A DNA stretch of 10,753 bases from a virus (taxonomy: Duplodnaviria; Heunggongvirae; Uroviricota; Caudoviricetes): the IMG/VR virus record IMGVR_UViG_2695420699_000008, positions 1-10,753 of that record; one strand, written 5' to 3'. The position numbers are program-made. Shown here one piece after another: positions 1 through 6,000 of the stretch. Within the stretch, counting starts at the first letter, position 1, and each line of letters starts with the position of its first letter.

Positions 1-3000
1 CGTCTGTCAGCACAGTAAAACCCGGTGTGCATCGTTTTTGATTATTCCCGCACACTCACGCAGAGGAGTTCCCCGTCGGGCTACGGTCATGGTTAATGCG
101 GGAATACGGCGACGATACAGCGCATGATGTGTCTGGCCTGAATACCTTTATCCGTTAAAAGGGATATCAGTTAAGTTATCCCGTGCAGGGTATAAGCCAT
201 TATCAAGCCCACCCGTAGATAGGCTTTGTAATGACATCTTCAATTAATCAGCAGTTCAGGCTGTGTCACCTGCAAAATGTATTCATGCTCGACAGCCAGG
301 ACACGCTTCTCTCTCTTCCGTTCGTTCATTAACCGACTGCCGATCGTACCTTTCAGCTTTGAGCGTGTTTCTTTGATGGCGTAGCGGTGCTGCATTTCTT
401 CGCCAATTGCCATGCGGCGGCTCAGTTGCTCTGCCATCCAGTTGAATGCTGCGATATAGCTCTCCTTGATTGCCGCAGCAGCTTTCCCGGTGAACCCCAT
501 CACAACCATGATCCAGCCATCTTTCGTCAGGCTGTACATCGGGCGAACCTTGCCCTGCTCATCGATATAATCAGCCGACGCAAAATTGCGTTGGCTAAAC
601 TCACGCGAGCAATCAGCCTTAACCTGCTCGATTTTCCTGAGAACATCACCGTGTCGCTTGCCGAAGTACTTGGCAATTTTTCTGGATGTGGTAACGACCT
701 CTCCGTTTTTGGCTTGCACCATTTCTCGGAAGTCGAAGGCTGGAATAACTGAATGATTATTCATAGCGTCTTTACCTTTTAGAAAGTGAGCCTGTCTCAC
801 AGAAAAGCCGCCCGAGAGAGGTCGCCACCTATAACGGCATTTCTCAGGCTCGCTTACTGAAAGGCTCTCGTTAATATGCGCGTGAGATGCGCGTTTACTG
901 CGGACATAAAAAAGCCCCGCATCGCGAGGCTCATTAAATTGACTTTGTGATTTGCAAAAAAATTTATTTCAGGCATTGCGTCCTGATGTACTCCTGAAGC
1001 GTTCTCAGTGCTGTTTGGTCACGGATAATTCCGTCCCGGATACCGAGAACGTTTCGTCCAGCAACTGAAGAGAGTTCGACGGTGGCCTCATTGCCCATGC
1101 CGGAGGAGCTGGAGGTTTTGGCTGAGGCTGGCACAGGGCATTTTCCTTTGACGAGCACCCGACCACCATTATCAAGCTTACGCCGAAGAGCATCATTTTC
1201 AGCTTTCGCATTGGCTAACTCCTTCGTGTATTTAGCATCGAGTACATCAGCAGCACGCTGGCGCTGCTGCATGTCAGTAATGGTGGCGGTCGCCTGCTTC
1301 AGCTCTCTGGCGTTTTTGTCGCGCTGCTCTTTGTAGGCGATGGCGTTATCACGGTAATGATTAACAGCCCATGACAGGCAGACGATGATGCAGATAATCA
1401 GAGCGGAGATAATCGCGGTTACTCTGCTCATTGCTGCCCCCACAAACAGACTTCACGCTCAATCTCACGACGAGTCATCAGGCCTTTCCATTGCTTACCG
1501 CCAGCGTATGTCCAGCGACGTAGCTGGTCACATGCGCCTTTGATATCACCCTGGTTTATTTTGCGAAGAAGCGTCGATGTTCTGAAATTACCAGCGCCCA
1601 CGTTGTAAACAAACGAGTAAAGAGCGCCGCGCGTTGTTTCCGGTATATCGACTTTGATGTACGGGTTAATTTGTCTGGCGACCATGGCAAGGTCTTTATT
1701 CAGGAGGGCTTTGCATTCTGCTTCGGTATACGTTTTACCGGGAATGATGTCTTTTCCGGTGTGTCCGTGACATACAGTCCATACGCCAACGATATCTTCG
1801 TATGGTATGTAGCTGACACCTTCCAGGCCATCGTCACCACTCGGACCAGTGATGAGCACAGACGCTATGGCAACAGCCCCACCACCAATAGCAGCAGCAA
1901 CGGCTTTTCGTAATGATGGAGGCATTATTCACCTCTCGCAGCCTTGCGCTTATCTTCTTTAATCTTGAAATAAAGGTTTGTCAGATACGTCAGCAGGCCA
2001 AACAGCAGACTCCCCAGCACACCTATTGCCACCCACTGGGACGGAGAGACTTTGTCCAGCAGCTGCAGTAACCAGTATCCCGTCCCCACCGCTGACGTGG
2101 TGTATGACACACCTGTTGTGATTTTTTCCATCTGGTACATACCCCGTCTCCCGTTATCCGGAAGCTGACAACAATAAAAAGCCACCAGTTAATTCCTGAT
2201 GGCCCTGATGCATAAACGTCATAATACCTGACTGTTATGATTGACAATAATGATAATGTTTATATAGAAAGGTTCCCGATGTGTGTTACATATCATTTCT
2301 CCACGGGGAATATCCCCACGCCAGCGCAGACTCTTTTACCCGTTCTCTTCTGCGCTGGCTCTTTTTTATTATGCTGCTGCATTTACCTCTGGCACCAGGC
2401 TTTCTATCTCAACACAATACGTGGTACTTCTTGTAACCAATATCATAACGATTAATCGACATAGAATTTCTCCCGTGTACAGGAACAGAGTTAAAAAGCC
2501 GGAACCGGAATCAAATCACAGGATGACCATCTGCCAGTGGCAGGTCATAAAAAAAAGGCCGCGCCATGCGCAGCCAGAACTCACAAGGAAAATGATAGAA
2601 GGAAATAACATTAGTGATGTACGCATGGCGCCTCCCGCTAAGTTCTGCAATGATCAAACAGAACTCGCTACGTGCCCTTAAAACTCGATCATTTAGCCCC
2701 TCCAAGGAGGATTCACCATGCGGTTGGTTTTTTAATAAACAGTAAACAAAAAAGTCAAGAATTATTCATTCTGTTCTTTCATCATCGGCCACAGCAATAC
2801 CACAATGCCGCAGACCAGAGCGCCATCAGTCAGTACCAACATTATCCTGCTGGTGAAATCCATCATCACCATCACTAAAAGCAGGATCACAACAGCAAGC
2901 AGACACAGTTTATAAAACAATGTTCAGAAAACGCATTCAGCATGCCTAAGGTTCTATTCCTACGAATAGCCAACTTGCAACTTAAAATATTATTTATGCA

Positions 3001-6000
3001 GCCAATTAAATTCTGGTCCTTACAATATCAACCTGAAGATTCTTATCTTGTGCTGATTGATAAATCACAAACCTTTTACTACCTGCATTGAAAGAAGTAG
3101 ACAAAACCAGACAATTATCATAGCGAGCAAGAACATAATACCAACCATCATTATAATTAATCATTTCATATTCTTTCTTAAACTGCGGTTTGTAATATCC
3201 TGTCAGAAATGAAAAAAGCCAGAAATATGCCACAAAAGCAATCATCACAATCTCAAAAAAATGTTTTTTTATAAATGGCTTATCATAGAAGCATGATACC
3301 GATAAAAATCGCCCATAAGATCTTATCGAAATTGTAACCGCCAGCGCAATCGCTGCTGACAGTAGCAAAAGAGGTACCTGAATCTTCTGTCTCAATATAG
3401 AAAACTCAATAATTGCCGGCACAAACAATAATTCCACAGCAAAATAAAGGCGAAATACATTTAGCTCTTGCATAGAATGTTTTCTTTTCACTGCGAAAAA
3501 GAATACAACACCAATACCCCAACCGATAAGAAATATAGCAATGACGATAACTGCAAAAAATAAACTTCTGGCAACATCATCAACACCTGCACCTACAATC
3601 CACCATGGGAAGCCGTAGTAAAAAGAAGTACCCCATCCATAGAAATAAGCACTCCCCCATCCAAGGCATCCCATGTAGGCAATAAAAAGTGAAGAACTCC
3701 TGAGCAGCGCACCATCCTTCATAACCACCCCAATACAAGATGATAACATTGGCTTACAACTCATAACAAAAGCAATTCAATGCCGTCAAGAGGTTACAGG
3801 CTAAAAAAACTCTATTACATTGCAGTCAGCATGTTTACTACACAAATACAATTCAGAGCATAAAAACTACTCGGCGGCAGGTTATTGAGACTCATCAATG
3901 ACATGTAAAAAACGCCCATTATTGGTGTCAAGTTTCCCCAAAGTTATTCAAAAAGTCAATATTATGCCGTTAATATGTTGCCATCCGTGGCAATCATGGC
4001 GCTAACGTGTGATCGCATTCAAAATGTTGTCTGCGATTGACTCTTCCTTGTGGCATTGCACAACCAGAGCGTCATACAGCGGCTTAACAGTGCGTGACCA
4101 GGTGGGTTGGGTAAGGTTTGGGATTAGCATCGTCACAGCGCGATATGCGGCGCTTGCTGGCATTCTTGAATAACCGACGCCTTTACATCTTCCGCACTCT
4201 TTCTCAGCAACTATCCCCCACTGCTCTGTTTTGGCTATATCAACCGCACGGCCTGTACCGTGGCAATCTCTGCATCTTGCGCCCGGCGTAGCGGCACTAC
4301 GGCAATAATCCGCATAAGCGAATGTTGCGAGCACTTGCAGTACCTTTGCCTTAGTATTTCCTTCGAGCTTTGCCACACCACGGTATTTCCCCGATACCTT
4401 GTGTGCAAATTGCATCAGATAGTTGATAGCCTTTTGTTTGTCGTTCTGGCTGAGTTCATGCTTACCGCAGAATGCAGCCATTCCGAATCCGGCTTGTGAT
4501 TGCGCCATCCCCATAGCAGCCATCACATCAGTACCGGAAAGAGAGTCAGAAGCCGTAGCCCGTGGTGAGTCGCTCATCATCGGGCTTTTTGGCGAATGAA
4601 ATTTAGCTACGCTTTCGAGTCTCATGCGCCTTCTCCCTGTACCTGAATCAATGTGAGATTTCCGCAGAACACTGCGCCGGTATCGATATACATCTGGTTG
4701 GCAAATTTGAGTGGTTTCACTGCTTGCGTATGACCAAAGATGAACGTGTCCGCGCCTTTGATTTCTTTCACGATCCCGTCTTGTGAGTTGCTGATTCGTT
4801 CGCGGTTCCAGATTACCTGCTGATGATCAACTGGCTTTCCAAACTCGTATTTATCACAAGGATAATCGGCGTGGCAGATGACATATTTTTTTCCTTTACT
4901 CACCAGTTCGATGATTAACGGAAGTTCATCTGCTTTATGGGCAAGAGCTTTAGCCAGAATTTCTTTGTCGTAATCGAGATTAAAGAACCAGCCACCGCCA
5001 TTAAGCAGCCAGTGATTGACGTTTCCACGCTCTGATAAGCCATCAATCATCATTTGCTCATGGTTTCCACGTACAGCTCTGAACCAGGGGAATGTGATTA
5101 ATTCCAGGCATTCTACGTTCTCTGTACCGCGATCAACCAAATCGCCCACCGAGATAAGCAGGTCTTTTTTGGTGTCGAATCCTATCGTCTCCAGTTTTTT
5201 CATCAGGTTCGTGTAGCATCCGTGCAGATCGCCAACTACCCAAATATTTCGGTATTTGCTGCCATCAATTCTTTCGTAGATATTCATGCAACCTCACTTC
5301 TGCTGTTTCGCAGTTTTTTAAGTTTCTGTTGATACTCCGCCTTGATGGCCCTGCACTCTTCGACAGTCCAGCGATAGCGGTTATGGTTTGATTCGATTTC
5401 CTCTACTGCTTCCTGCCCGATGCGGCTAATCAGTTCGACGCGATACGGAACGAGATTTCCGCTTTTGTGCTGGTTGCACACCACGCATTGCTTGTGAATA
5501 TTGCGTTCATCAAATCGGAGTTGAGGTGCCGCAGCAGTTGTCCGGTAATGTCCGGCATCCCACTGAGCAGACGTGAGCGTTCCGCACGAGATACATGGTA
5601 AGTCGCGGTCTCTTTCTCTGATGAAGGCGTTTACGGCTTGTTGGGCTTGTTTAATCCAGTAACTGCGGGGCTTTAAGGCGAGTTTTCGAATCTTAAGTTT
5701 ATCTTTCTGTTTCTGCTCCTCTCGTCGTCGTTTCTTCTCTGCTGCTTTTTCCGCTTTTTCGCGTTCTTTACTTCGTCGTTCGAGTGCTATCTTGGTTTCA
5801 CAAATCTCATTACACCAATATTGATTTTGATATTTTGGTATAAACCATTCATTGCAACATTTACATTTCCTTCGATAGATTCGCATAAGTGCTCCTTTCG
5901 TTGCCGGAAAAATCACCGTAATACTTATCTCGGGCTTCTTCAGCAACTAGTACCGCTAACTCCAGATCATCAAAGCATCCGAAGTGTTTACTCTTGCCAT

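Follow-up and report, generated by a model that had tools for sequence, protein, structure and literature searches.

Does the interval between the antiterminator gene Q and the lysis genes of a lambdoid prophage contain two late promoter/terminator modules, or two units of unrelated origin? This question is raised by the virus record IMGVR_UViG_2695420699_000008 (Caudoviricetes), of which positions 1 to 10,753, hereafter the window, were analysed. On the minus strand, two TTGACT hexamers bracket two small genes, called here cargo genes. An earlier note on this sequence interpreted the first hexamer as part of a lambda-like pR' located after Q, with an intact-looking Q-binding spacer and a degenerate -10 (GAAACT). 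The second one was interpreted as a further late unit, with the geometry of lambda pR'-tR' (6S RNA), that would make a short terminated RNA or would be a remnant. The elements do occur on this strand, the second TTGACT lying 1201 nt downstream of the first. The analysis nevertheless indicates that they very probably belong to two unrelated units carried by a mosaic lambdoid prophage: a lambda-type, Q-dependent pR'/qut region (unit 1) and pasD1, a small RNA (sRNA) gene (unit 2).

Both units are already known in kind, since one is a known sRNA gene and the other a known promoter type in a common allele. The main value of the analysis is a correct annotation, that of the second unit as the sRNA gene pasD1. 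Furthermore, unit 1 lacks a terminator of its own, which bears on the expression of prophage cargo genes and sRNAs in lysogens.

The bare consensus matches of both units are not above chance. Indeed, TTGACT is found 6 times on the two strands of the 10.7-kb window (about 5 expected for a random hexamer), and a sigma-70 promoter scan of the window called neither unit, its 5 promoter-like sites comparing with 5.6 expected from shuffled sequences. Both units are therefore counted as real because of homology, with lambda pR' for unit 1 and with a mapped sRNA for unit 2.

Identity of the second unit

The second hexamer is followed, 183-209 nt away, by the only strong intrinsic terminator present between the two hexamers or just after the second one, in agreement with the 170-200 nt previously proposed. 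The 173 nt that end at this terminator (window 2721-2549) are identical, without any mismatch, to PasD1 of the enteropathogenic Escherichia coli (EPEC) O127:H6 strain E2348/69. PasD1 is defined as NC_011601 1060260-1060432, a 173-nt RNA of prophage PP4 detected by northern blot and by sequencing of ligated interacting RNAs (RIL-seq) on Hfq (PMC8550237). The published northern probe, CATGCGCAGCCAGAACTCACAAGG, corresponds to positions 2565-2588 of the plus strand of the window, and the published seed, UGUGAG, lies at 2585-2580. The pasD1 sequence is also identical in prophage Sp3 of strain Sakai, a copy that Table S6 of Pearl Mizrahi et al. 2021 equates with EcOnc13 of Tree et al. 2014 (PMC8550237). 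In Sakai, EcOnc13 gave a band of ~187 nt and an Hfq peak by crosslinking and analysis of cDNA (CRAC) (PMC4104026); if the coordinates of that paper hold in the current RefSeq version, this peak lies on the U-rich stretch that precedes the terminator. A discrete Hfq-associated RNA is thus documented for identical sequences in both E2348/69 and Sakai (PMC8550237, PMC4104026). From this identity, the second unit can be assigned to the gene of the known sRNA PasD1 and had already been described, and the suggestion that it makes a short terminated RNA is borne out.

The unit also belongs to a wider family. The Rfam model of STnc100 (RF02076) matches it over its full length (1-206) at 2751-2546, with 37.5 bits (E 2.4e-5), which does not reach the gathering score of 47. 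The PasD copies of 434, 2B8 and E2348/69 score 38-41 bits, and the Evi copy, 83% identical to that of the window, is intermediate with 120 bits. The alignment of ten members reveals the invariant blocks CAUGGUGAAUCC..GGGGC and CGGGAGGC.CC. Like STnc100, the window unit lies on the late strand, after a moron and before esterase/lysis genes, and ends with an intrinsic terminator. PasD therefore appears to be a divergent relative of the STnc100 family. The preprint of Zhu, Shabalina & Storz 2026 argues that PasD and STnc100 share an ancestor and reports that pasD of phage 2B8 lies directly upstream of an esterase gene.

HnrS (EcOnc10-12), also considered for unit 2, was dropped on its description, that of a 66-nt sRNA within late genes as opposed to a 173-nt RNA. 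Tree et al. 2014 list for EcOnc13 an oligonucleotide (TTTTCTAACACATCTATTATCAGACCGGCAACAAC) that has no match in PasD of Sp3 (Sp3 2700-2900); its reverse complement is found in the hexamer/spacer region of Stx1-type (Stx, Shiga toxin) STnc100. This reflects either a labelling issue or an RNA start located further upstream in the Stx1-type branch. In the RefSeq records examined, pasD is not annotated. These records instead carry, at 2283-2681 on the plus strand and antisense to the late operon, a 132-aa 'hypothetical protein' (e.g. WP_033816266.1, WP_012578864.1) whose open reading frame (ORF) spans the antisense of PasD plus the antisense sRNA described below. This ORF is probably not a real gene.

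Is the second unit a former late promoter?

According to the earlier note, the second unit could be a second, possibly vestigial pR'-tR' cassette brought together with a phage 21-type lysis module. The geometry is alike, a TTGACT followed some 170-200 nt further by a strong terminator, and the short pR'-tR' RNA of lambda is about 194 nt long. Besides, a 16-nt resemblance exists around the TTGACT hexamers (ATAAT-ATTGACTTTTT versus ATAATTCTTGACTTTTT), the lysis genes are of S21 type and the region is evidently a mosaic. However, the likeness around the hexamers is at chance level (z 2.0; the same score is reached by 18 of 300 shuffles), and the unit is located 1.2 kb from Q, behind two ORFs.

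Unit 2 was compared by local alignment, with z scores obtained from shuffles, to the leaders of lambda (pR'-tR'), of Q21 type, of Q933 type and of Q82/434 type. The Q21 type was represented by Stx2c phage 1717, whose Q belongs to the Q21 Pfam family (PF06530), in place of phage 21; we take its q allele to be of the phage 21 type. No similarity was found to the lambda, Q21-type and Q933-type leaders (z 0.2-0.5), and with the Q82/434-type leader the only match is a 16-nt one involving a T-run (UUUUUUUUAUG.CCUG), whereas STnc100 positive controls reached z 4.5-12.7 in the same alignments.

The distribution of the family points in the same direction. In every phage examined, PasD/STnc100 members are found after cargo genes and before an esterase or holin gene, whether the Q protein belongs to the Q-lambda, Q82 or Q21 family. 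In phage 1717, STnc100 lies 1.9 kb downstream of Q, behind stx2c, and, directly after Q, a distinct promoter-like TTGACA site can be recognized by eye, together with a hairpin and its T-run. In the window, the homology block that includes unit 2 (2770-2438, common to 434 and 2B8) extends into the second cargo gene, whereas the S21-type lysis cassettes of Stx2c phages are matched only from about 2209 on; the intervening stretch, shared with Stx1 phages, is one more mosaic piece. These blocks suggest that the PasD unit travels with the cargo and not with the lysis genes. Together with the complete identity to PasD1 and the full-length alignment to STnc100, these data largely refute the view of unit 2 as a second late promoter, whether active or a phage 21 remnant, and leave it hardly any likelihood. 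The proposed recombination between a lambda-type Q/qut module and a phage 21-type lysis module is right as to mosaicism, homology blocks with different phages succeeding one another along the window, but not as to unit 2 being a regulatory unit left over from it.

A probable promoter of its own for pasD1

Transcription of PasD most likely starts from a sigma-70 promoter of its own, TTGACT-18-TAAAAA. Across the ten aligned members, TTG..CT and TTA.A hardly vary, if at all, and a constant 17 nt separates them, while the spacer and the upstream sequences diverge. At an 18-nt spacing, the -10 reads TAAAAA in the window and TAGATT in the member carried by Klebsiella phage Kp4875-4, where TTGACT-18-TAGATT is the only promoter-like site called by the scan in 500 nt. 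The start predicted ~7 nt past the -10, i.e. at ~2722, adjoins the 5' end of PasD1 at 2721. Furthermore, RpoD binding has been reported at Salmonella STnc100 copies by chromatin immunoprecipitation with exonuclease treatment (ChIP-exo).

Published RNA-seq data from E2348/69 (DESeq2 baseMeans, activating condition) give 6 for Q, 147 for the membrane protein gene, 8652 for pasD1, 2064 for the antisense RNA, 5.4 for the holin gene and 3.9 for the endolysin gene; the DUF3927 gene of the sister prophage PP2, equivalent to the second cargo gene, has a baseMean of 37. The counts of PasD1 and PasD2 (8652 and 11017) thus exceed those of the upstream genes (147, 226, 37) by a factor of 40-300.

Several points weigh against this assignment. 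The putative -10 lacks the usual final T and the promoter scan did not call the site. The 5' end of PasD1 comes from RNA-seq coverage and from a northern size (173 nt versus ~187 nt), the Rfam STnc100 model begins 30 nt upstream of it, and the probe listed for EcOnc13 matches the hexamer region of Stx1-type STnc100. The last two observations suggest that the RNA of the Stx-type branch may start further upstream.

PasD could also be devoid of a promoter and be a stable 3' fragment processed from pR' or cargo transcripts, i.e. an sRNA derived from the 3' untranslated region of the DUF3927 gene. The absence of a functional terminator between pR' and PasD, the poor -10, the linkage of DUF3927 genes with the sRNA in both E. 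coli and Klebsiella and the directionality column of Pearl Mizrahi et al., which brackets PasD2 with the upstream gene (PMC8550237), are consistent with such processing. This origin is nevertheless unlikely: the excess of PasD1 and PasD2 over the upstream genes is found despite the shorter RNA, and the distance between the hexamers is constant although the spacers diverge. Moreover, in the Klebsiella member, a hairpin can be seen by eye between the DUF3927 stop codon and the good TTGACT-18-TAGATT promoter, and the unit is still expressed in Stx phages, where stxB or tRNAs take the place of DUF3927 in front of it.

A lambda-type late promoter downstream of Q

Whereas unit 2 turns out to be an sRNA gene, unit 1 has the features of a lambda-type pR'/qut region. 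The Q gene directly upstream encodes a protein of the Q-lambda family that is identical to lambda Q at 203 of 207 positions (differences L135Q, R138I, V140A and V205I). The -35 hexamer starts 43 nt past the Q stop codon, and unit 1 aligns base for base, without any gap, with lambda pR', as the first reading of the sequence had proposed. Its promoter includes a predicted Q-binding element between the -35 and the -10, and the spacer, 14/17 identical to that of lambda, is found in another natural allele, one with a TAAATT -10. A -10-like candidate pause element occurs in the initially transcribed region. Indeed, the -10 is followed by TGACACC, AATAAT and GGG, the counterpart in lambda being TTGACT-C-AACGAT-GGG. 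The pause element is spaced as in HK97, with one base more than in lambda, and both AATAAT and the preceding TTGACA are nearer to consensus than the elements of lambda itself. In lambda, the matching sequences are the Q-binding element and the sigma-dependent pause element where Q loads (PMC9388147).

The -10 hexamer was compared with those of five other natural lambda-type alleles (lambda, HK97, Emek and two E. coli prophages). As all five carry TAAATT, GAAACT appears to be a derived, atypical hexamer, and its description as degenerate is upheld. Since it departs from all the other alleles seen, pR' could be weak. More radically, GAAACT might have inactivated pR', the late genes being off or using another promoter. 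Besides the five TAAATT alleles, this possibility draws on the promoter scan, which does not call unit 1, and on the many such prophages of E. coli genomes that are defective. It is very unlikely, as GAAACT retains the A and the T of positions 2 and 6, respectively, and lies beside a 5/6 -35 at a 17-nt spacing. Furthermore, the whole Q-proximal stretch of 246 nt (4010-3765), GAAACT included, is 100% identical in phage Lambda_2B8. The temperate phages of the 2B8 study formed plaques on laboratory indicator strains and came from culture supernatants or faecal viromes (PMC6969025), and Lambda_2B8 is, by its naming, one of those that came from supernatants. In E. coli, 569 of the 1170 genomes with a Q end of lambda type carry the allele at 99% identity or above, among them O157:H7, O111:H8, O127:H6 and environmental strains. 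The allele is thus no one-off product of decay, and we infer that unit 1 is a working late promoter.

Three of the four Q differences (L135Q, R138I and V140A; 4200-4225, codons 135-140) cluster at the tip of the zinc-ribbon 'arm' of Q, which, in the published structure, touches the Q-binding element and sigma region 4. Among the six alleles compared, R138I and V140A occur only with this promoter allele. No clear case of arm substitutions co-varying with spacer changes emerged, L135Q being also found with the HK97-type spacer.

A late promoter devoid of its own terminator

The term promoter/terminator module, applied by the earlier note to both units, is only half true for unit 1, which has no functional terminator of its own; in unit 2, the terminator exists but the module is not a late one. 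Homology to lambda-type phages stops at ~3915 (roughly +9), and past ~+9 nothing related to the lambda leader, in particular no tR'-type terminator shortly downstream of pR', was found. A minus-strand terminator scan from 3925 to 2575 called none, and the 209-nt leader folds no better than shuffled sequences (z -0.08).

From 3883 on, homology is with the leader found in phage 434, E2348/69 prophage PP2 and Sakai Sp3, which encode a Q of the Q82 family. In phage 434, this leader begins with the terminator AAACCCGCTGCCGAGTGGGTTTTTTTT (RNA AAACCCGCUGCCGAGUGGGU8; -13.3 kcal/mol, z -3.3), and that of PP2 differs by one base. The window counterpart, AACCTGCCGCCGAGTAG----TTTTT (RNA AACCUGCCGCCGAGUAG----U5), shows a 4-nt deletion and substitutions and cannot form the 434 hairpin; another fold reaches only -4.6 kcal/mol (z -0.3). 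A sister allele with a TAAATT -10 harbours the same decayed remnant, and the idea that TAAATT alleles keep the leader terminator while GAAACT alleles lose it was consequently rejected, both being devoid of it. The first strong terminator downstream of pR' is that of PasD, ~1.37 kb away and behind the two cargo genes. This allele lacking its own tR' was not found described in the literature consulted and is a modestly useful point.

Proposed functioning of the locus

In the arrangement that we favour, a lambda-type promoter followed by an sRNA gene, RNA polymerase would start at ~3923 and pause at the -10-like AATAAT. When Q is present, it would be turned into a terminator-resistant form at qut. 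In the lysogen, the abundant PasD and its convergent antisense partner would each be transcribed from their own promoter, and Q-free transcripts coming from pR' or from a cargo promoter would cross the cargo genes and stop at the PasD terminator, which the hairpin 2206-2178 would back ahead of the holin gene. After induction, Q-modified polymerase would read past both barriers into the lysis and structural genes. Sequence identities, the limits of the homologous stretches and the published expression of identical sequences are established facts, whereas the promoter activity of GAAACT, the exact start of PasD and the barrier role of its terminator are inferred.

Because this allele has no tR' of its own, the PasD terminator would be the first barrier before the lysis genes, and it probably keeps them silent. 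The published baseMeans of E2348/69 fit this model, those of the holin and endolysin genes, directly downstream, being low. On the other side, the cargo gene is expressed at a similar level in PP2, which keeps the leader terminator. The comparison of PP2 and PP4 was considered as a natural assay of read-through and rejected, as their membrane proteins are identical (same WP accession) and the reads cannot be assigned to one or the other; the similar cargo expression therefore says nothing decisive on read-through from pR'.

It is conceivable, although rather doubtful, that pR' without its own terminator acts as a Q-independent promoter of the cargo operon in lysogens, the PasD terminator being the real switch point for Q. 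If so, part of the PasD pool could derive from pR' and rise on induction, and the weakened GAAACT might be a tuning for such an arrangement.

Organization of the region

Table 1. Features of the Q-to-holin interval (window coordinates; EHEC, enterohaemorrhagic E. coli)
Feature	Position	Strand	Basis
Q antiterminator gene, lambda family, 207 aa	4002..4625	-	Pfam PF03589, E 1.2e-57
pR' -35 hexamer TTGACT	3954..3959	-	same as lambda pR' -35 in base-for-base alignment
17-nt spacer with Q-binding-element homologue, TTTTGAATAACTTTGGG	3937..3953	-	14/17 identical to lambda TATTGAATAAAATTGGG
pR' -10 hexamer GAAACT	3931..3936	-	4/6 identical to lambda TAAATT
Putative early-transcribed part of qut: -35-like TTGACA, 2-nt gap, pause element AATAAT (3923-3918), GGG	3915..3931	-	
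Decayed remnant of a phage 434/PP2-type leader terminator	3862..3883	-	alignment and folding
Cargo gene 1, low-GC membrane protein	3006..3764	-	RefSeq 'STM1630 family', phrog_1521
Cargo gene 2, DUF3927/TciB-like 52-aa membrane protein	2762..2920	-	PF13064, E 3.4e-14; phrog_1470
Putative pasD promoter, TTGACT (2758-2753), 18 nt, TAAAAA (2734-2729)	2729..2758	-	conservation
pasD1 sRNA, 173 nt (EcOnc13 in EHEC; divergent STnc100 relative)	2549..2721	-	173/173 identity
PasD intrinsic terminator, GGCTGCGC-ATG-GCGCGGCC + T8	2549..2575	-	8 pairs, 7 of them G-C; -16.1 kcal/mol
Convergent antisense sRNA gene (Esr41-like/PasA-related/EcOnc32), TTGACA-16-TATAGA	2241..2369	+	Rfam, probe
Second terminator-like hairpin, ~40 nt upstream of the holin start	2178..2206	-	11-bp stem, then UUUUUAUUGUU
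S21-type class II holin gene, first late gene	1925..2140	-	ORF list; 'class II holin family protein' in identical prophages

The window corresponds to the late-regulatory part of a lambdoid prophage. On the minus strand, which carries both units, the genes of NinB, an adenine methylase, NinE, an HNH endonuclease, NinG and a Ser/Thr phosphatase precede Q, which is followed by the two cargo genes and by genes encoding the S21-type holin, a signal-arrest-release (SAR) endolysin, Rz and a Rha-like protein. The Q-to-holin stretch is ~99% identical to that of prophage PP4 of E2348/69, and the 2-kb arrangement is found, with at least 80% of the query covered, in 586 of 5426 complete E. coli genomes.

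The cargo genes have a low GC content (31-41% for cargo gene 1). RefSeq starts of cargo gene 1 correspond to position 3722 (strain 22-250) or 3749 (E2348/69), and in phage 434, Sakai Sp3 and E2348/69 PP2 the gene lies after a Q of the Q82 type. Its product has no match in PADLOC or NCBIfam. A homologue of the DUF3927 gene also precedes the STnc100 unit in Kp4875-4, where a DUF3927-like gene, a hairpin, the TTGACT-18-TAGATT promoter and an STnc100 homologue (81 bits) follow one another at 2269-2661; a terminator scan of 2250-2750 called none for this sRNA copy. The pairing of a DUF3927 gene with the sRNA thus appears to be conserved across genera.

Facing PasD, a convergent sRNA gene is predicted to encode a ~90-nt RNA ending with a terminator of -21.2 kcal/mol (z -6.7). 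With Rfam Esr41 it reaches 32.3 bits, for a gathering score of 102; it is related to the PasA region, and the EcOnc32 probe of Tree et al. 2014 matches it. In E2348/69, the antisense 'coding sequence' that overlaps it, E2348C_1013, has a baseMean of 2064 and is Hfq-dependent, and RIL-seq fragments map at window 2327-2368. This antisense sRNA bears no Pas name in the Pas literature consulted. Such pairs of convergent sRNAs, located where morons occur downstream of pR', have already been described in Sakai prophages (PMC4104026), and the succession of a late promoter, cargo genes, a convergent sRNA pair and lysis genes is known from both EHEC and EPEC prophages. In Stx2 phage F004 (4001-4260), STnc100 and AsxR, encoded on the late and the opposite strand, respectively, abut at 4206/4208, the same convergent layout as PasD and its antisense sRNA but without a gap.

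Between this sRNA gene and the holin gene, the hairpin 2206-2178 (-16.2 kcal/mol, z -4.2), where the homology to S21-type cassettes starts, could be either a second barrier to Q-free transcription or a structure of the holin mRNA.

Elsewhere in the window, NinE is separated from the HNH/NinG genes by an inserted low-GC ORF of 590 aa on the opposite strand (6996-8768, plus strand); it belongs to phrog_9230, of unknown function, and nothing in Pfam, NCBIfam or PADLOC matches it. Beside it, a perfect tandem repeat, (AAATAG) x 9.8, is found at 6621-6679. A tRNA scan of the whole window found none.

Comparison with known systems

The closest counterparts of the window are PasD1 and PasD2 of E2348/69 and EcOnc13 of Sakai. 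With PasD1, the window shares the RNA (173/173), the seed and the terminator. PasD1 of E2348/69 also has the same neighbours (a lambda-type Q, the membrane protein gene, the DUF3927 gene and the holin gene), and its locus differs by one base upstream (C versus T at 2727) and another just before TTGACT.

STnc100 (RF02076), which occurs in Salmonella, EHEC and Stx phages and is multicopy, aligns with the window PasD over its full length and shares with it conserved blocks and the 3' terminator. Like PasD, it lies after a moron and before an esterase or holin gene and faces a convergent antisense partner (AsxR/AgvB in Stx2 phage). However, the two RNAs differ in their central part and in their 3' single-stranded seed region, and blastn does not link one to the other. 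StxS of Stx phages (PMC7547250) is likewise a short, abundant, terminated prophage RNA of the late region in lysogens, but it is the pR' leader ending at tR', whereas PasD lies 1.2 kb downstream, behind the cargo, with apparently its own promoter.

For unit 1, the reference is lambda pR'-qut-tR', with which the window shares the -35, 14 of 17 spacer bases, TTGAC(A/T), the pause element followed by GGG and a 98% identical Q. Lambda differs by its TAAATT -10 and by a pause element one base nearer, and the window is devoid of tR' and of a 6S-type leader. The late regions of 434, PP2 and Sakai Sp3 have in common with the window the leader from 3883 on, the cargo genes and pasD, but their Q belongs to another family, their promoter differs and their leader terminator is intact; in 434 and PP2, an esterase gene is also located between pasD and the holin gene. 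Globally, the order pR', morons, convergent sRNAs and a conserved ORF is the one already described for Sakai prophages (PMC4104026).

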